Shown: positions 548 through 8,401 of the stretch, in pieces | How the letters are laid out: each line of letters begins with the position of its first letter | How positions within the stretch are numbered: position 1 is the stretch's first letter | Origin: an uncultured delta proteobacterium | Lineage (GTDB): Bacteria; Desulfobacterota; Syntrophorhabdia; Syntrophorhabdales; WCHB1-27 | DNA: 10,952 nt | Assembly: GCA_963810935.1 (NCBI GenBank) | Contig: CAWEPK010000013.1 | Coordinates: 1-10,952 of the forward strand | Direction of reading: 5' to 3' | Made by a program: the position numbers and the translations under genes | The notes under the pieces: generated by a model | Seen by the model: the letters and a program-made list of their open reading frames with translations, nothing else | The model's database searches: none | Told to the model about the DNA's origin: nothing

Positions 548-2407
548 TCAAATGTACCATGACGAGGGAAGATCGGCCATCCCCCCGATCCCCAGTTCTT
601 CCGTCCTGGCAGTCACCCTCTCGCCCATGGCCCTGTTCATCTTTATCTCCTCCGGCCATGGTCTCATCCTCCCCTCCCCTCTCTTGGCGGTCGCATCAAT
701 CACCATGCGGCCGCCTTTGTTGAAAATGTCACCTCCGGGGTCCACGTTGGCGGCTGCGCGCCAAAGGGCCTCCTCGTTCTCGACGGCCGCAACGGGGCCG
801 TCGAGAAGCACGCAGAAAACTCCCTCGGGCATGAAGGTCGACGAGAGAAGAAGGTCTACCAGGCTGTCCCTCTCCGCCGTGCCCTGCACCCCCACCAGAA
901 TCAGCGGATGGGCCGCCTCCCCGAAGAGGAGGCGGCAGTCAATGACGCGGGCGTCGCGGCTGCGAAGAAGGTTGGCCACCTCCGCATCGGGAGGCGGCGG
1001 CGCACCGGCAGGGAGGCAGCCCCTGACAGCCTCTCCTCTCAACCTTCCGGTGAGGTCCACGCCGACCTTCCCTCCCAGGACGGGCGACGGCGACGCGTGG
1101 TCGAGGACGTCGAGGATGCCGGTGGAAAAGGTGAGATCGCGCTGCGGGTCGATTGTATCGAGTACAGCCCGGGCGACCTCGCTGCCCATTGTCAGGTCAA
1201 GGGGCGCGTCGAGCACTAAGATCGCCTTGGATAAGCCCATCTGGCCGGAACCCCAGAGGCCGTGCATTACCCGAGCCGCCTGGCCGGGATAACGCTTCTC
1301 GATAGTCGCCAGCACTATGTTGTGAAAGACGCCCTCCCGGGGCATCCTGCAGTCGACAAGCTCGGGCAGGACCGCCTGGAGGAGGGGCAAAAAAAGCCTC
1401 TCCGTCGCCAGCCCGATGTAGGAGTCCTCCATGGGCGGGCGGCCAACCACCGTAGCCTGGTAGACGGCATCTTTCCTGTGGGTAAGGGCGGTCACATGAA
1501 AGACCGGATAAAGGTCGGCTGCCGAATAGAAGCCCGTGTGGTCGCCGAAGGGGCCCTCGAGGCGCTCTTCAGCCGGATCGACGTAGCCTTCGAGGACGAT
1601 CTCCGCCTCTGCAGGCACATCGAGATCAACCGTAAGGCACCGCGCCATCCGCACGGGCCTCCGTCTGACGAACCCCGCAAGGAGCATTTCATCGACGCCG
1701 TAAGGGAGAGGGGCTGTTGCCGCATAGGTGACGGCGGGATCCGCTCCTATGGCAACGGCAACCTCCATCCTCTTCCCTGCCGCACCATATTCATGGAAAT
1801 GGCGGGCCCCGTCCTTGTGGACATGCCAGTGCATCCCCAGCGTCTGGCCGTCAAACACCTGAAGGCGGTACATGCCGGCATTCCGCCGGCCTTCCGCATT
1901 CTTGGAAAAAACGATGGGAAGAGTTACAAACCTGCCCCCGTCGCCCGGCCAGCAGTGCAGGACCGGCAGCCTGTGGACATCGACATCCCCACCCCTGAAG
2001 ACCACATCCTGACAGGGGGGTGGGAAAAGACCGGGACCGCCGGGCAGGAATCGGGACCAGCCAAGCGCTTTAACGAGGAGGCGGACCTTGTCGGCAAGGG
2101 AGCCCGGCGGCCGGGGCGCAAGTATATCCCTGAGCCGGCCTGCCAACTCGCCGAGGTCGTCCACGCCGAGGGCCATGCAGATCCTCTTCATGCTGCCGAA
2201 GGCATTGGTGAGGACGGGCATCGAAGAGCCTTCCACCTTCTCGAAAAGAAGCGCCTTGCCGCCCCCAGGTGTTTTGGATGCCCTGTCCGTTATCTCCGAT
2301 ATCTCGAGGACAGGCGAGACAGGGGCCTTGATTCTCAGGAGCTCGCCTTCGGAATCGAGGGCCGCTATGAAGTCCCTAAGGCTGTTGTAGGTTTTTTCGT
2401 TCTTCAT
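548..2407 (-). CDS. ubiD: UbiD-family prFMN-dependent decarboxylase, menaquinone-biosynthesis (MqnL-like) type, 619 aa
   Basis: Motifs LRDFI..L...GEL, GGKALLFE, PVLTNAFGS, LPVLHCWPGDGGRFVTLP, RNAGMYRLQ, AEAEIVLEG, EGPFGDHTGFY, TVVGRPPMED and GGKVGVDLT. ATG is 12 nt after the upstream stop. Confidence 0.95.
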   Translation of the reverse strand: MKNEKTYNSLRDFIAALDSEGELLRIKAPVSPVLEISEITDRASKTPGGGKALLFEKVEGSSMPVLTNAFGSMKRICMALGVDDLGELAGRLRDILAPRPPGSLADKVRLLVKALGWSRFLPGGPGLFPPPCQDVVFRGGDVDVHRLPVLHCWPGDGGRFVTLPIVFSKNAEGRRNAGMYRLQVFDGQTLGMHWHVHKDGARHFHEYGAAGKRMEVAVAIGADPAVTYAATAPLPYGVDEMLLAGFVRRRPVRMARCLTVDLDVPAEAEIVLEGYVDPAEERLEGPFGDHTGFYSAADLYPVFHVTALTHRKDAVYQATVVGRPPMEDSYIGLATERLFLPLLQAVLPELVDCRMPREGVFHNIVLATIEKRYPGQAARVMHGLWGSGQMGLSKAILVLDAPLDLTMGSEVARAVLDTIDPQRDLTFSTGILDVLDHASPSPVLGGKVGVDLTGRLRGEAVRGCLPAGAPPPPDAEVANLLRSRDARVIDCRLLFGEAAHPLILVGVQGTAERDSLVDLLLSSTFMPEGVFCVLLDGPVAAVENEEALWRAAANVDPGGDIFNKGGRMVIDATAKRGEGRMRPWPEEIKMNRAMGERVTARTEELGIGGMADLPSSWYI

Positions 2408-2419
2408 GCACCCGTCCGC

Positions 2420-4120
2420 CTAAGCAAGCCGCCTCAGGATCTCTTCGGTCATGAGCGCGGCAAATACAAGGAGCGAAATTACACTGTTGATCCAGTAGAA
2501 GGCAATATGGATCCTGGAAAAGTTCTTCGGCGTCACGAGATGGTGCTCGACGACGAGAAGCATGCCGATTACCAGAACGAAGACTATGTAAACACGGGTC
2601 AGGCCGAAGAACCAGAAGAGCGAAAGGAGAGCCCCGAAGGCTACCAGGTGGAGCAGGCCCGACACGGTCAGGGCCGCCTCGGCGCCGAACCTTACCGGCA
2701 TCGAGCACAGGCCCTCCTGACTGTCAAATTCCACGTCCTGGCAGGCATAGAGGATGTCGAAGCCGGCGATATAGGCACACAGGGCAAGCGACAGGATGAC
2801 AATATTGACGGAAAGCGAGTTCGTGAGGGCCACCCAGACGCCGAGAGGGGCCAGACCGATGGCGATCCCCAGCGCCAGGTGGGACAGCCAGGTGAACCGC
2901 TTCGTATAGGAGTAGCCGAAGAGGACGGCCAGCACTGCGAAGGAATACCGGAAACACAGAGGGGATATGAAGAGGGCGGCAAGCACGAAGAGGACGGCGG
3001 AGGCAGCGACGAAGGCTGCCGTCTCCCCGGAGGTGACTTTCCCGGAAGGAAGCTCCCTGTCGGCCGTTCGCGGATTCCTGCCGTCGAAGGAAGCGTCAAC
3101 CAGGCGGTTGAATCCCATTGCAGCCGACCTGGCGCCGACCATGGCGACGACGATCCAGAAACCCTGCCTGAAGGTGACGGAAAATTGGCGCATTGCCAGG
3201 AGCAAGGCGGCAAGGGCGAAGGGCAACGCGAAGACCGTATGCTCGAACCTGATGAGACGACCGTAGACGCCGGCCGTGCGCCCCACCCGGACTATCGCCT
3301 GCACCACGGGGCTCTTCGTCTCCTCCACAAAGCTCGCATATTTCCATGGACACAGGCGCGGCTCGAGCGCCCCCAGGGCCTCGTAAAGCAATATTCCGAG
3401 AATACCCATGCCGACGATGCCGTTCCAGAGATGGCCGTAATCCATACGCGCCCACGCGTCCATGATGAGATAGCCCAGACCCGTTGTGGTGGCAAAAGAT
3501 TCGACGAAAAAGAGGACCGACACGGCCGTGCCGATCCCTATGCGGAGAGCGGTAAAGCTATGAGGCAGGGCGGCGGGAAAGGCTACCTCCATCAACACGA
3601 CGCGGTCATCCGCCCCGAGGGAGCGAAGAGAATCATAGTACTTCCCGTCCACGGCCCTTACGCCGTCCCTGGTCGCGACCAGCACCTGGAAGAAAAGGAT
3701 GCTTGTGATAAGGACAACCTTGGAAAGGTCGCCTATGCCGAATATAAGGAGGACGAGGGGAAGGAGGACGATTTTCGGGACCGGGTAGGTTATGAATACG
3801 AGAGGCGCAAAAATGCGGTCAATCCTTCTTCCGTAGCCCATGGCTACACCGACCGGGAAGGCAAGGAGCCAGCCCAGGGCTATACCAGCCGACACCCGGT
3901 ATGCGCTGATAAAGAAATGCCCCCAGAACTCGACGGTCCCGCAGGCCTTCGAAAAATTGAGGAGCACCGTTTCGGGGGGAAGAAGGAATGGCGACCTGAC
4001 GGCGCAAGCGGCCAGCTTCCAGAGGGCGGCGAGGATGCAAAGGCAGAGGGCGTAGTTGACCCCACGGGCCACCGCACCGGACGATCCTGTCTTCCATTCC
4101 CTATCAGCCGACGATGTCAT
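2420..4120 (-). CDS. Fusion protein: N-terminal SsuC/TauC-type ABC permease plus C-terminal UbiA-family (MqnP-like) polyprenyltransferase, 566 aa
   Basis: N-half has LLPPETV, SAYRV..G, YPVPKIVLLPL....FGIG, EAA-like YYDSLRSLGA....EVAFPAALP, and GLGYLIMDAW. C-half has IRFEHTVFALPFA, ARSAAMGFNRLVDASFDGRNPRT, YSYTKRFT and DILYACQDVEFD. The frame is continuous across the linker (about 3345-3260). ATG at 4120 overlaps the ATPase stop (ATGA, 4120-4117), so it is preferred over the track's GTG at 4135. Confidence 0.92.
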   Translation of the reverse strand: MTSSADREWKTGSSGAVARGVNYALCLCILAALWKLAACAVRSPFLLPPETVLLNFSKACGTVEFWGHFFISAYRVSAGIALGWLLAFPVGVAMGYGRRIDRIFAPLVFITYPVPKIVLLPLVLLIFGIGDLSKVVLITSILFFQVLVATRDGVRAVDGKYYDSLRSLGADDRVVLMEVAFPAALPHSFTALRIGIGTAVSVLFFVESFATTTGLGYLIMDAWARMDYGHLWNGIVGMGILGILLYEALGALEPRLCPWKYASFVEETKSPVVQAIVRVGRTAGVYGRLIRFEHTVFALPFALAALLLAMRQFSVTFRQGFWIVVAMVGARSAAMGFNRLVDASFDGRNPRTADRELPSGKVTSGETAAFVAASAVLFVLAALFISPLCFRYSFAVLAVLFGYSYTKRFTWLSHLALGIAIGLAPLGVWVALTNSLSVNIVILSLALCAYIAGFDILYACQDVEFDSQEGLCSMPVRFGAEAALTVSGLLHLVAFGALLSLFWFFGLTRVYIVFVLVIGMLLVVEHHLVTPKNFSRIHIAFYWINSVISLLVFAALMTEEILRRLA

Positions 4121-4848
4121 GGAGCTTCGAGGCACCTCCGCACCTCTTTACAGGTCTCGTGAAAAGACGCCTCTTCACGATAGCCGGCGCTGCCCACCCT
4201 CCCGTTATCTATCATCCTTTTGATAGATCCAGGCCTCCTGCCCAGGACCATGATTACCTGCCCCAGAAAAACGGCCTCCTCGATGCTGTGGGTCACGAGG
4301 ATCATTGTCAGCCCTCTTCTCTTCCATATGCCGAGCAGAAGGTTCTGAAGGTTCTCTCTGGTGAGGGCATCAAGGGAGGAGAAGGGCTCGTCCATCAAAA
4401 GAAGATCCGGTTCCGTGGCCAGCGCCCGGCCGATTGCAATGCGCTGTTTCTCCCCGCCCGAGAGACTCTCCGGAAAACGGTCCCGCTGCGCAAGGAGCCC
4501 GAGCTCGTCGAGGAGGTGTTCCGCCCTCCGTCCCTGCGTCGGTTTATCGAGCCGCGCGATCTTCATCCCGAGACAGACGTTCTCCCAGACCGTGCGCCAC
4601 GGCAGCAGACCGAAATCCTGCAAAATGAAACCGGTCTTCCCCGGCCTGCCCGCCTCTCTGTCGTTGATTGTCACGCCGCCCGAGCTCGGCGCCAGAAGGC
4701 CCGCCAGGAGATAGAGGAGCGTCGTCTTGCCGCACCCGGAGGGACCCACTACGGCCAGCGAGCCTGCATCGGGCACCGAAAAGCTAATGTCCCTAAGGAC
4801 GGGCGTGTCTTCCTGAAAACATTTATCGAGCCTGTCTACCTGGACCAA
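4117..4848 (-). CDS. ABC transporter ATP-binding protein, SsuB/TauB/NitT type
   Basis: Walker A GPSGCGKTT, Q-loop ILQD..LLPW, signature LSGGEKQR, Walker B LLLMDEPFSSLD, and VTHSIEEAVFL. TTG start preceded by GAAGAGGG. Confidence 0.95.
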   Translation of the reverse strand: MVQVDRLDKCFQEDTPVLRDISFSVPDAGSLAVVGPSGCGKTTLLYLLAGLLAPSSGGVTINDREAGRPGKTGFILQDFGLLPWRTVWENVCLGMKIARLDKPTQGRRAEHLLDELGLLAQRDRFPESLSGGEKQRIAIGRALATEPDLLLMDEPFSSLDALTRENLQNLLLGIWKRRGLTMILVTHSIEEAVFLGQVIMVLGRRPGSIKRMIDNGRVGSAGYREEASFHETCKEVRRCLEAP

Positions 4849-4866: not shown

Positions 4867-5805
4867 TTACCAGGGCGCAACAATAGTTTCGTAGGCAGCG
4901 GTCGTTGAGATCAATCCCTTTTCCTTCAGCCATTTCGAAATCGAGAGGACATCCTGCCGCCTCGGCTTCTCGGGACGTGGAAACAGGGGCACCTTGAACC
5001 GCCCCCTCAGGGAAGCGGGAAACTGTGTCCGCTCCACCAACAAATCTATAAAGGCCTGGGGGTTCTCATCTATCGCCCGGACAGCCTTGTCGTACGCCGC
5101 GACAAAGCGCGCCGCAAGGTCCGGGTAGCGGGTTAGAAGGTCGCTTTTCAGCGCCACTACCGTGAGAGTGGTATCAAGTCCCCTGTCATCGGCGAGCACG
5201 ATGGCCCCTTCGGACTCGGCTTTGCTCGCTAGAGGCTCGGGCAGAAGGGCAGACTTCACCTGCCCCGCCATGAGCATCTGGTACCGTATGGGGATGGCCC
5301 TCACCTCAATCTTACCTACCCTGTTAGCACGGACGGCAGACCTGGAGAGTATCCCGTCGAGCACGTATTCGACGACGGAGGCCTTCGATACGGCCACGGA
5401 CTCACCCGCAAGCTGTCCCACGTCCCTGATCCCGGACCGGGGCGAGGCGAGCAGGGCAAACATCCTTTGCCTGGAATCCGTCCTCATGACGGAAGTCAGG
5501 ACGGCGAGACGCTGGCCGGAGTTTATCAGGAGGAGCGTATTGAGGAGGTCCCCGAAATAGGCATCGACTTTTCCGCTTTGTAGTGCCACGTCCCGTTCGA
5601 GGGCGCTCGAAAAGTAAAGGAACCTGGCGTCGATCCCCTGCTCCTCGAAAAAACCCTTCTTCCCTGCAACGACGAGGGGAAGGGTATCGATCACGGGCAA
5701 CAGTCCCAAGGATACGGAGACCCGTTCTGCGGCAACGGCCGGAGAGACGCCTCCCGGACAGAGGAAAGCAACGAGGACGACCGATAGCAAGGCCCTTCTA
5801 ATCAT
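4867..5805 (-). CDS. ABC transporter substrate-binding protein, SsuA/TauA/NMT1-THI5-like, 312 aa
   Basis: Signal peptide MIRRALLSVVLVAFLCPGGVSPAVAA. Motifs LPLVVA.KKGFFEEQGID, ALQSGKVDA, SGIRDV.QLAG, and GQVKSALLPEP. The first 78 aa of the 390-aa track ORF lie in the IS110 end and promoter region and are probably not translated. Alternative ATG at 5814. Confidence 0.9.
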   Translation of the reverse strand: MIRRALLSVVLVAFLCPGGVSPAVAAERVSVSLGLLPVIDTLPLVVAGKKGFFEEQGIDARFLYFSSALERDVALQSGKVDAYFGDLLNTLLLINSGQRLAVLTSVMRTDSRQRMFALLASPRSGIRDVGQLAGESVAVSKASVVEYVLDGILSRSAVRANRVGKIEVRAIPIRYQMLMAGQVKSALLPEPLASKAESEGAIVLADDRGLDTTLTVVALKSDLLTRYPDLAARFVAAYDKAVRAIDENPQAFIDLLVERTQFPASLRGRFKVPLFPRPEKPRRQDVLSISKWLKEKGLISTTAAYETIVAPW

Positions 5806-5812
5806 GGGGGAC

Positions 5813-5818
5813 ATTATA
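5813..5818 (-). promoter_or_regulatory. Candidate sigma70 -10 box (TATAAT) for the ABC-ubiA-ubiD operon
   Basis: Perfect TATAAT at 5818-5813, 7 nt before the ATG at 5805. No Shine-Dalgarno. The -35 match is weak (TTCGCT at 17 nt spacing). Confidence 0.45.
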
Positions 5819-5849: not shown

Positions 5850-6814
5850 GCGGGGTCAGTAGTGGGTCAGTTTGAAAATGATAATGTTGCTTAACCGCTC
5901 TTGCACGTCTTTTTAACTTGACATTCAAGGGCCTGTTGCCCAACTCATAATGCCAGTCCTTTGTCATGGAGACAAATGTCCGTGTTTCAGCGGCGGTGAT
6001 GCAGTTAGCAACACTTGTTTTCTCTTTCCTGCATTTCACGGATGCCGGTTGAATTCTTCACGATTACTGGCTGTCCTGATGTTGACGACTTCAGTCAACT
6101 GGCTTCGCTTCCCTCCCTCCTCAAAGCATGTTTGGTGAACCAGCATGGCGAACATCACCCGGATGAGCTTATGGGCAGTTGCCATAATCGCCTTTTTGTA
6201 GCACAGCCCGTCTCTCTTTCTTTTGCAGAAATAGGCCCTGAAGAGGTCATTGGAGAAGACTACGGTCTTGGTCGTCAGCCAGATCACCCTTCTCAGGCGC
6301 CGGTTTCCTCTCTTGTTTATTTTGCTTGATCCTTCGTACTTGCCCGATTGGTATGTGGAAGAAGGATCGAGGCCGGCAGCGGCAATGAGCTTCTTGTCGT
6401 TCTTGCAGAGGCTAACATCTCCGCCCATCTCTAATTGCGGTCGCTTCCCCTATGCCCTTGATCGAGATTGGTAGCTAGATGTCTTTCTTCATCTTCTCAT
6501 TGCAGAAATCCGTAAGGGCCTTCGTCGTCTCCTTGATCTGCTCCTGGATATAGAGAAGCAGAGAGGCATCCTGTTTCAAAATCAGTTCCCTTGCCGGGGA
6601 TGAGATAACTACAGAAGAAGATGCAGTAGCCATCAGGGTATCCACCCACGCCCTGGACTTTCTGCCCAATGACCGGGGAACAACGATGGCTGCCACAGTA
6701 TCGACATCTTCCTTTCGAAGTGCATCAGCAGAGGGGAACCGGGTGAGCAGTTGCAGGATAGACTTGGTGAAGACCCCTGTAAGACTCCAGCTCAGGGAAG
6801 GTGACGGATAGCAC
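5850..6814 (-). mobile_element. Degenerate IS110-family element: transposase remnant plus downstream non-coding end; boundaries approximate
   Basis: Transposase fragments (next feature), followed by about 200 nt of lower-GC non-coding sequence with several inverted repeats. GC-rich host-like sequence resumes near 5850. Confidence 0.7.
6036..6814 (-). pseudogene. IS110/IS116/IS902-family transposase pseudogene lacking the N-terminal DEDD domain
   Basis: Reads VLSVTFPELES (6814-6782), frameshift, LTGVFTKSILQLLTRFPSA...KKDI, TAG (6477-6475), LPISIKGIGEATA, frameshift near 6432, then MGGDVS...KKLIAAAGLDPSSTYQSGKYEGSSKINKRGNRRLRR...KKAIMATAHKLIRVMFAML (Transposase_20-type motifs). Confidence 0.92.
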
Positions 6815-7016
6815 CCCTCCCCTTGCTCCACCCATTGTACTGCCTTTTTTAGCCTTCTTTCGAATGCCCCTTACCTCACAACGCGCAAGACACCCTAAGG
6901 TAGATCCACTATCCCCTGCATAAGGCAAAGGCCATTTTAAGTAATTCGCCGCTCTTGACGATAAAAAGTATAGCAGGTTTACGATCTTGACCCTATGACC
7001 GAATGGGGAGGTACGA

Positions 7017-7876: not shown

Positions 7877-8401
7877 TCAATGATGTGCGGTAGTCGTCGT
7901 TGACGATCCCTTGCCGCCGCTGGCGGCGATAATGGCTGCGGCTGCGGCAGCGGCAATCCCTGCGCCTGCTGCTATCGTCCCTGCGCCTATACCGGCGGCC
8001 ACGTGTCCGCCGGCCACCAAACCGGCCGTGTGGGCCGCCTCGGAGGCGGACTTGGCAGCGGCGGCAGCTTTGGCGGCGGCCGCCTTATCGGCTTCAGTTC
8101 CGGTAAGGGCGGCCTTTTGGGCGGCGAAGTCGGCCGCTTTATTAGCCTCTGAGGCGGCAATCCTGGCCTGTTCGGCGGCTATTTTTTTCTCAGCGGCGGC
8201 GGCAACCGCATCGCCTTTCGCCTCTGCTGCGGCCGCGGCTTTTTCTGCGACTGCGGCCTTCTCCTCTGCTGCGGCTGCGGCTTTTTCCGCGGTAGCGGCT
8301 TGCCGGCCTAATTCCTCAGCCGTCTGTGCAAACACCTGGATGGGAGCCATAAGCCCGATACATAAAGCGAGGAAGCAACAAAGCAAAAATCTGCCACTCA
8401 T
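7877..8401 (-). CDS. Ala-rich exported protein with a C-terminal hydrophobic helix and Gly/Ser/Thr tail (YjbE/GfcA-like architecture)
   Basis: RBS GGTGAGGT. Signal peptide ending VFA|QT. AEKAAAAAEEKAA helical repeats. C-terminus AGIAAAAAAAIIAASGGKGSSTTTTAHH. Confidence 0.8.
   Translation of the reverse strand: MSGRFLLCCFLALCIGLMAPIQVFAQTAEELGRQAATAEKAAAAAEEKAAVAEKAAAAAEAKGDAVAAAAEKKIAAEQARIAASEANKAADFAAQKAALTGTEADKAAAAKAAAAAKSASEAAHTAGLVAGGHVAAGIGAGTIAAGAGIAAAAAAAIIAASGGKGSSTTTTAHH

Follow-up and report, generated by a model that had tools for sequence, protein, structure and literature searches.

A conserved ABC permease–MqnP fusion and a candidate importer family for menaquinone naphthoate head groups

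MqnP, MqnL and MqnM carry out late steps of the futalosine pathway to menaquinone and were predicted and named by Ravcheev and Thiele in 2016 (PMC4746308). As a prediction for gut microbes, that study proposes that organisms with only the late genes use soluble precursors; in its words the importers "remain to be annotated", and it describes such exchange as entirely uncharacterized (PMC4746308). Oral Porphyromonas strains that keep only menA and ubiE require added 1,4-dihydroxy-2-naphthoate, and the available portion of the preprint names no importer for this compound (bioRxiv 10.64898/2026.08.04.741601). Exchange of quinone precursors between microbes has been proposed previously. Here we analyze an operon on a contig of 10,952 bases from an uncultured bacterium of the Syntrophorhabdales, in which the permease of a type I ATP-binding cassette (ABC) importer is fused in frame to a UbiA-family prenyltransferase of the MqnP type. 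The contig (C13) was analyzed whole, is called the window below, and belongs to a 4.06 Mb assembly of 21 contigs rated 93.5% complete and 7.1% contaminated.

The operon resembles the described late futalosine-pathway genes in passing the models TIGR01475 and TIGR03701, in the interleaving of its enzyme with theirs in a phylogenetic tree and in the presence of a UbiX-type gene in four of eight annotated cassettes. Described MqnP proteins are stand-alone and ~280–300 amino acids (aa) long, whereas in the window MqnP is joined to an ABC permease as its C-terminal half, and early genes of the futalosine pathway were not found in the window's genome. With the salvage organisms of the mouth and gut the locus would share the logic of keeping the late membrane steps while the soluble head group comes from outside; it differs in that its candidate importer and enzyme form one protein, and in that this importer is part of the futalosine branch, with its 6-carboxy isomer. 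The UbiA homolog of Aeropyrum pernix (4od4/4od5) has the same fold and both Asp-rich motifs in a single-domain protein. Like NrtBCD, CmpBCD, TauABC and SsuABC, the operon has one permease gene, together with an ATPase and a binding protein of the TauA/SsuA class; unlike them, its permease carries a C-terminal enzyme and its partners are quinone enzymes rather than sulfonate or nitrate enzymes. Transport with chemical trapping is known from the sugar phosphotransferase system, from PnuC with NadR and from LplT with Aas, all of which share the concept of a solute modified on entry and differ in folds and chemistry.

In the literature searched, which covered subscription journals little, we found no description of a permease–UbiA fusion or of a naphthoate importer, and none of an ABC importer whose solute is trapped by prenylation. 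An earlier reading of this DNA from its letters alone (the sequence-only reading) had known of no characterized protein with this architecture; we likewise found none in that literature or among solved structures, where no single chain spans the permease and the UbiA half together (best TMq 0.44). As far as we found, the architecture and its proposed role are apparently undescribed; the parts come from known families, and trapping by modification is a known principle.

A conserved fusion of an ABC permease to an MqnP-type prenyltransferase

The fusion is one minus-strand open reading frame (ORF) without a stop between its permease and UbiA halves, encoding 571 aa from a GTG at 4135 or 566 aa from an ATG at 4120; the ATG is the likelier start because it overlaps the stop of the upstream ATPase gene (ATGA). 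Pfam residue ranges follow the 571-aa numbering, and all other residue numbers the 566-aa form. Pfam profiles place BPD_transp_1 at residues 85–259 (74.7 bits, cut-off 26.4) and UbiA at residues 303–551 (167.5 bits, cut-off 34.2), the latter covering positions 1–249 of 250 in profile PF01040, as expected of a member of the superfamily. The permease half (residues 1–259; 3344..4120, minus strand), of the type I ABC importer class with six predicted membrane helices, contains an EAA-type cytoplasmic loop (residues 163–186; 3563–3634, minus strand). A hydrophilic linker (residues 260–285; 3266..3343, minus strand), delimited by an alignment of 43 fused homologs, leads into the MqnP-type UbiA prenyltransferase half (residues 286–566 and stop; 2420..3265, minus strand), recognized by Pfam UbiA and TIGR01475. 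The UbiA half contains two Asp-rich motifs on the same strand, NRLVDASFD at residues 338–346 (3083–3109) and YACQDVEFD at residues 458–466 (2723–2749). Residues N338, R339, D342, D346, Y458, C460, D462 and D466 are invariant across the 43 aligned homologs, and in the permease half D163, S164, S167 and P182–P186 are conserved. The sequence-only reading had described an uninterrupted 566-aa ORF joining a complete permease to a complete prenyltransferase with both motifs intact, which the ORF and Pfam matches on the minus strand and the alignment confirm; it was also right that a linker is present, and overestimated its length at about 30 aa, against ~26 aa here.

Contigs assembled from short reads of two soil-metagenome runs cross the linker without gaps (X1 record 2, 3118–3838; X2 record 10, 2656–3442); an indel there would have refuted the sequence-only reading. 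Both runs come from one study and may include the source sample, and no insertions or deletions are listed in the soil-metagenome contig matches across 2420–4848. A wetland metatranscriptome (X6) contributed one contig of 227 nucleotides (nt) at 3767–3993 with one mismatch, and a peat run (X5) short pieces only, both too little for claims on expression or habitat.

When 5.8 billion clustered proteins were searched, 909 of the 8000 candidates scored matched at E ≤ 0.001. Both PF00528 and PF01040 are present in 119 of the best 120 of these 909 homologs, which are 534–568 aa long and 47–100% identical to the window's protein, and the sole exception is a 373-aa record marked partial. By name, the sources are Syntrophorhabdaceae/Syntrophorhabdales, Thermodesulfobacteriota/Desulfobacterales, Spirochaetota and Methanomassiliicoccales, and a contig scan added an example from the Chloroflexota. 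Within the window's own order, 9 of 61 genomes have the fusion; with close relatives fused in this way, a read-through private to one genome is excluded. The linker varies from ~15 to 27 aa among the 43 aligned homologs, and the variable segment, which runs from an invariant C-x-W at the permease end to the first UbiA helix, may be acidic or basic and is never broken. The fusion ORF thus encodes a genuine, conserved bifunctional membrane protein that is maintained under selection. Names in public records cover one half only: "UbiA-like polyprenyltransferase", "4-hydroxybenzoate polyprenyltransferase" or an SsuC permease, as in the [quoted passage not shown] recorded for one homolog. In one genome (G060 C25:27274–28915) the match to the fused gene is split into two overlapping pieces that a single TGA separates inside the permease half, reflecting either a frameshift or an assembly error.

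An AlphaFold2 (AF2) model of the whole fusion, built with 43 homologs, had a mean pLDDT of 85.3 with both halves confident, and a pTM of 0.64, which gives no basis for the mutual orientation of the halves. Only residues 1–14 and 265–269 were poor, with the lowest pLDDT at 265–269. Foldseek comparison aligned the UbiA half with the Aeropyrum homolog 4od4/4od5 at TMt 0.86–0.87 and 29–30% identity, with a sequence match to 4od4 at E 1.1e-30; the nine-helix fold seen in this comparison and the motifs NxxxDxxxD and DxxxD are those of the UbiA superfamily. The permease half aligned with CmpB/NrtB at TMt 0.69–0.77 and matched the same solved proteins by sequence (CmpB 1.2e-13, NrtB 3.1e-10), so that the PF00528 profile, the EAA-type loop and the fold all identify a type I ABC importer permease. 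Residues 1–262 and 270–566 predicted as separate chains gave a complex score of 0.00, a value with no bearing on docking. The EAA-type loop of ABC importers faces the ATPase, and UbiA active sites, as in the ApUbiA structures, lie on the cytoplasmic face. Two membrane helices come after the EAA loop (residues 163–186), which would make the linker cytoplasmic, and in the AF2 model, from which helix positions were taken, two helices past the linker return the first Asp-rich motif (338–346) to the cytoplasmic face. With the EAA loop and this motif on the cytoplasmic side, the modeled fusion would be topologically sound.

The UbiA half passes TIGR01475 at 276.1 bits (cut-off 180.8). A phylogenetic tree of 90 UbiA domains intersperses the 16 fused rows among stand-alone genes from Syntrophales and Desulfobacterales, and MqnA/MqnD (PF02621) is present in 32 of the 33 searched genomes that hold a stand-alone ortholog of the UbiA half. 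Among 13 fused genomes outside the window's order, the fusion is the only TIGR01475 match at E up to 1e-30 in 12, the gene of the thirteenth being cut. MqnL is adjacent, with UbiX in four of the eight cassettes annotated. Orthology and gene context thus identify the C-terminal half as MqnP, the late futalosine-pathway prenyltransferase, which would be expected to prenylate 1,4-dihydroxy-6-naphthoate. We considered a single origin for the fusion: the permease tree is compatible with one, and the UbiA tree demands at least four changes of state on well-supported branches; fusion or fission may have occurred repeatedly, or the enzyme half may have been exchanged.

The window's genome has three more UbiA-family genes, none near a transporter of this family: a distant MenA-like gene (C8:444701–445450; 215 bits on PRK05951, cut-off 239), a weak UbiA match adjoining a B12-binding radical SAM gene (C12:210186–218907) and a gene on C5 resembling decaprenyl-phosphate phosphoribosyltransferase.

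The cassette and other arrangements of the transporter family

In the window the genes form a compact, self-contained cassette and run, all on the minus strand, in the order binding protein, ATPase, fusion and UbiD. The ABC transporter ATPase (4117..4848, minus strand; Pfam ABC_tran 107.8 bits) carries GPSGCGKT, LSGGEKQR and LLLMDEP, which we take to be the Walker A, signature and Walker B motifs. Upstream of it lies the gene of an NMT1/SsuA/TauA-class binding protein that begins with a signal peptide (4867..5814, minus strand; NMT1 52.2 bits, NMT1_2 49.9 bits). Its true start is uncertain because the ORF is open up to 6039, and the Met at 5814 was used; the hydrophobic N-termini align in 13 orthologs. 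A cognate ATPase and an exported binding protein in the operon of the fusion place the protein among importers. The UbiD-family decarboxylase (548..2407, minus strand, 619 aa) starts 12 nt past the stop of the fusion and is an MqnL equivalog, scoring 598.3 bits on TIGR03701 mena_SCO4490 (menaquinone biosynthesis decarboxylase; cut-off 495.9). Pfam UbiD_N, UbiD and UbiD_C cover its residues 14–451 only, and a C-terminal extension of ~150 aa (residues ~452–619; 548–1050, minus strand) has no Pfam match. MqnL-type decarboxylases of ~600–620 aa occur in fused cassettes and in many stand-alone loci of Desulfobacterales, and those of unfused cassettes of the sister families have 478 aa. Five further UbiD-family genes are present in the window's genome (six in total), none near a transporter of the family.

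We scanned loci in one genome per species and kept the best 80, which are best matches and no random sample; 584 of the 600 matched stretches encode a relative. Thirteen of the 80 are fused, 65 have only a stand-alone ortholog of the UbiA half (42–61% identical to it) and 2 have only an unfused permease ortholog. A tblastn comparison with five parts of the operon found binding protein, ATPase, permease–UbiA fusion and UbiD in the same order and on the same strand in 11 of the 13 fused loci, which come from other phyla; the remaining two are truncated by contig ends and agree as far as they extend. Pfam annotation of eight fused loci placed a UbiX-type flavoprotein between UbiA and UbiD in four, and found the flanking genes unrelated between loci. 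The window's genome has a single UbiX, on another contig than the cassette. One cassette is archaeal: in a Methanomassiliicoccus genome (G005; locus L014, 6288–12225) it consists of binding protein, ATPase, fused gene and a long UbiD, and neither PF02621 nor MqnC was found in that genome. Two further Methanomassiliicoccales homologs are named in NCBI records, and the archaeal cassette points to transfer between domains. It also raises the question whether these relatives of methanogens use a menaquinone, on which the literature search found nothing.

The transporter family is tied to menaquinone PRENYLTRANSFERASES in three gene arrangements. Within the order its permease is fused to MqnP, stands unfused beside MqnL–MqnP, or stands beside MenG–MenA, and 35 visible contexts within this one order tie the family to menaquinone prenyltransferases. 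In the second arrangement, all nine sister-family loci fetched have UbiD (478 aa), UbiA, binding protein, ATPase and permease in this order (UbiA gene positions at L093 and L102 are tblastn coordinates). In 17 of 19 further loci the permease is followed on the same strand by a UbiE/MenG methyltransferase, a second UbiA-family gene, or both; of the other two, one ends 43 nt past the permease, and one, truncated at a contig end, clusters with the second arrangement. Three of the four UbiA-family genes scored pass the MenA equivalog (113–117 bits, cut-off 102.15) and the fourth reaches 97.8, and the one methyltransferase scored passes TIGR01934 (228 bits, cut-off 158.35). A permease tree of 44 rows separates clades by partner, with support of 97 for the unfused MqnP type, 99 for the MenA type and 99 for the fused type, and joins the MenA-type and fused clades as sisters with support of 97.

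MenA decarboxylates while prenylating. MenA cassettes are without UbiD and MqnP cassettes always have it, and the enzyme content of each cassette fits the chemistry of its naphthoate isomer. From its genes, the MenA-type cassette looks like one for salvage of 1,4-dihydroxy-2-naphthoate. Cassettes of this type were seen in the same gene order at L107–L111 and L116–L127 (for example L117:3534–7500 and L119:3367–7327), and one genome (G086) carries both MenA-type and fused cassettes. Another genome, G077, holds a complete MenA-type cassette (L111) and, on a different contig (L112, G077:C17, 5522–12778), a UbiD–UbiA pair and after it an orphan binding protein that lacks both ATPase and permease; tryptophan-pathway genes lie downstream (anthranilate synthase component I, phosphoribosyltransferase and IGP synthase).

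A natural swap is visible between two genomes of one genus, whose UbiA genes are sisters with support of 100 and branch lengths of 0.13 and 0.10. In G096 the gene order is DAHP synthase, two radical-SAM genes of the CofH/MqnC type, two MqnA/D genes, a nucleosidase-type gene, UbiD, UbiA and UbiX, with no transporter. In G098, which is rated 100% complete and in which PF02621 and MqnC/E were not found, the order is UbiD, UbiA, binding protein, ATPase, permease, a small gene and UbiX. The importer of G098 thus occupies the place of the head-group pathway of G096.

Missing head-group genes and the case for salvage

Searches of the window's genome found no PF02621 and no MqnE, and neither MqnC (best 22.7 bits) nor MenB (137 bits, cut-off 342.7) over its cut-off. 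We extended the search to 61 genomes of the order, the window's own and 60 others, of which 45 have a completeness of 90% or more and a contamination no higher than 5%. MqnA/D is present in four of them (G075, G081, G085 and G096), MqnC/E-like genes (E up to 1e-60) in the very same four, and MenD over its cut-off in none, such that MqnA/D, MqnC/E and MenD were all not found in 57 of 61 genomes, many rated 95–100% complete. An MqnP-type gene is present in 23 of the 61, fused in 9 and unfused in 14. Outside the order, the fusion is associated with missing de novo genes: PF02621 is missing in 6 of 13 fused genomes, for which we have no completeness figures, compared with 1 of 33 genomes with a stand-alone gene, and MqnC was not found in any of the five examined among those six. 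The window's genome encodes quinone-interacting subunits of the NrfD type (three matches) and of the NarI/DsrM type (three matches).

Together, these data suggest, with a probability we put at about 0.6, that the cassette salvages a soluble naphthoate head group by import coupled to prenylation, the likeliest cargo being 1,4-dihydroxy-6-naphthoate. The exported binding protein would capture soluble dihydroxynaphthoate released by neighbors, and the permease, presumably a homodimer as its single gene and solved relatives suggest, would release the cargo at the cytoplasmic membrane face. The tethered MqnP would then add a polyprenyl tail and so fix the molecule in the membrane, MqnL with its UbiX-made cofactor would strip the carboxylate to give demethylmenaquinone, and a methyltransferase would complete menaquinone. 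With MqnD absent, the cargo would have to be the MqnD product or something equivalent, and with no known de novo pathway found in the window's genome the cassette would be the sole source of MqnP substrate. The identity of the cargo, the direction of transport, a homodimer bearing two enzyme domains, physical coupling or channeling and a kinetic advantage of the tether are what we infer from this arrangement. The proposal of the sequence-only reading, that an imported aromatic acid is trapped in the membrane by prenylation, gains support from comparative genomics in the three gene arrangements and the de novo genes not found; the evidence refines it in that the enzyme half is MqnP-like and the likely cargo a dihydroxynaphthoate. 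For the wider proposal, an unrecognized ABC-importer family for menaquinone naphthoate head groups in which one branch, fused to MqnP, combines uptake and prenylation trapping on one complex and a sister branch serves MenA/MenG, we see an even chance.

Several observations weigh against this interpretation. Seven of the 13 fused genomes keep MqnA/D, and the fusion is their only MqnP-class gene; the fusion is therefore independent of de novo loss, the enzyme half in these genomes must accept substrate made in the cytoplasm, and tethering or channeling is accordingly not obligatory. In one genome of the order, G081, the linked transporter coexists with the de novo genes, and in two Desulfovibrionales genomes the nearest unfused transporter has no adjoining prenyltransferase. 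No report of the release of 1,4-dihydroxy-6-naphthoate into the environment was found in the literature searched, and the proposed substrate is deduced from gene content only. The absence of a gene from a metagenome-assembled genome is never proof, and related genomes are not independent samples. The UbiA half also falls below three narrow NCBIfam MqnP "exception" models (NF041584, NF041585 and NF041586; 219/420, 221/375 and 255/430 bits/cut-off). This failure is uninformative because the UbiA inside the complete mqn operon of G096 scores alike, with 300 bits on TIGR01475 and 239, 259 and 259 on the MqnP models; on MqnP_DT the two proteins reach 255 and 259, both below 430. For the last step of the route, the best MenG/UbiE candidate of the window's genome (C12:189282–189951; L104, ~1290–1960, minus strand) lies in two adjacent pieces in different frames, scoring 151.4 and 49.1 bits (cut-off 158.35), with the frame lost after ~170 residues. 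The split is either an assembly frameshift or a pseudogene.

The strongest competing explanation, which we nevertheless consider unlikely, is that the cargo is 4-hydroxybenzoate or a related hydroxy-aromatic acid and that UbiA and UbiD make a prenylated phenol or a different quinone. Many homologs bear the JGI label "4-hydroxybenzoate polyprenyltransferase", the nearest solved structure, 4od4, is labeled 4-hydroxybenzoate octaprenyltransferase, and six UbiD-family genes would suit a degrader of aromatic compounds. Models of 4-hydroxybenzoate transferases score nearly like the MqnP models (PRK12888 246 bits, PRK12874 216 bits), but every one of them remains below its cut-off, and the adjacent UbiD passes the menaquinone-specific TIGR03701 and not the UbiD equivalog (376 bits, cut-off 788). 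Orthologs of the UbiA half further occur inside a complete mqn operon, and in the sister transporter clade the partners are the naphthoquinone enzymes MenA and MenG.

Somewhat less probable again is recapture, in which the head group is made by an unrecognized route and the importer only retrieves leaked intermediate. The seven fused genomes with de novo genes that still keep the importer half, the presence of both systems in G081 and the unfused orthologous transporter retained by two Desulfovibrionales genomes with MqnA/D would all be expected under recapture. On the other side stand the 57 of 61 genomes of the order without MqnA/D, MqnC/E or MenD found and the genus in which the importer stands at the site of a relative's de novo genes, and a third head-group pathway is pure supposition.

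We regard as improbable a fusion without functional coupling, in which the transporter moves a solute with no link to quinones, automatic annotation pointing to a sulfonate, to taurine or to an anion like nitrate, and the joining serves co-expression or co-localization in the membrane. The best curated models for the permease half are SaoP, TauC and SsuC (126.4, 117 and 86 bits), one NCBI homolog record is named "SsuC" and the binding protein is nearest by fold to TauA and SsuA. These model scores are, however, far below their cut-offs (295, 342 and 347), as is that for NtrB below its own in NCBIfam, and sulfonate-utilization genes were not seen in the cassettes. The three independent arrangements with their 35 contexts, and cassette enzymes that match the chemistry of each naphthoate isomer (UbiD with MqnP, none with MenA), also argue for a link to menaquinone prenylation. 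An artifact of assembly or sequencing, with a lost stop or an indel joining two genes, might be suspected from the short contig, the 7% estimated contamination and the apparently frameshifted MenG candidate, and is refuted by fused homologs from many assemblies and sources and by the contigs that cross the linker ungapped.

If the cassette does salvage naphthoate head groups, entire lineages would be auxotrophic for the head group and would rely on neighbors for their respiratory quinone, among them most Syntrophorhabdales and some Desulfobacterales, Spirochaetota, Chloroflexota and archaeal Methanomassiliicoccales, and the cassette would have passed between the bacterial and archaeal domains. 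Important syntrophs that degrade aromatic compounds, together with some relatives of methanogens, are then predicted to be unable to make the quinone head group, with implications for the difficulty of culturing them and for dependencies within anaerobic communities. The fusion would also exemplify an ABC importer passing what it takes up to a membrane enzyme tethered to it. It works as a Rosetta stone, linking one specific ABC transporter family with menaquinone prenylation, and so provides candidate importers of both naphthoate isomers that can be tested directly.

The binding protein and the remainder of the window

An AF2 model of the binding protein (pLDDT 90.7) matched TauA, SsuA, Thi5, ThiY and PqqT in Foldseek comparison, matches that indicate a broad class rather than a particular ligand. 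Sequence matches to solved structures are weak, the best being 3qsl at 1.1e-9 and the others at least 1e-7. The fold class is shared with PqqT, ThiY and a thiamin-binding protein (9b1u, 3ix1 and 4nmy), which bind PQQ, formylaminopyrimidine and thiamin, and 9b1u is also a weak sequence match (E 0.0014); the binding protein of the window is only 15–19% identical to these proteins. Because these three serve the salvage of aromatic cofactors, the shared fold class speaks for the naphthoate interpretation, although taurine and sulfonate binders belong to it too. Two arginines (R74 and R177) and two aromatic residues (W295 and Y308) are invariant in 13 orthologs, and one may speculate that they could hold an aromatic carboxylate. 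Derivation of the binding protein from MqnA/MqnD, which have the same broad fold, was considered and is unsupported, with PF02621 not among its Pfam matches at E up to 0.01.

No Rfam family was found in the window at E up to 0.1, so that riboswitches give no hint of the ligand; sites resembling promoters or terminators are as frequent as expected by chance. Immediately upstream of the operon, at 6036–6831 on the minus strand, are two short ORFs of 130 and 118 aa, the first of which matches the C-terminal Transposase_20 domain of IS110-family transposases, and because of this match the region looks like a broken insertion sequence. An IS200-like transposase lies in the equivalent upstream position at another fused locus (L074). 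Farther upstream, at 7877–8401 on the minus strand, a 174-aa ORF without a Pfam match has a signal-peptide-like start and an extremely alanine-rich body with runs of A, K and E; because of this composition the opposite strand is also open.

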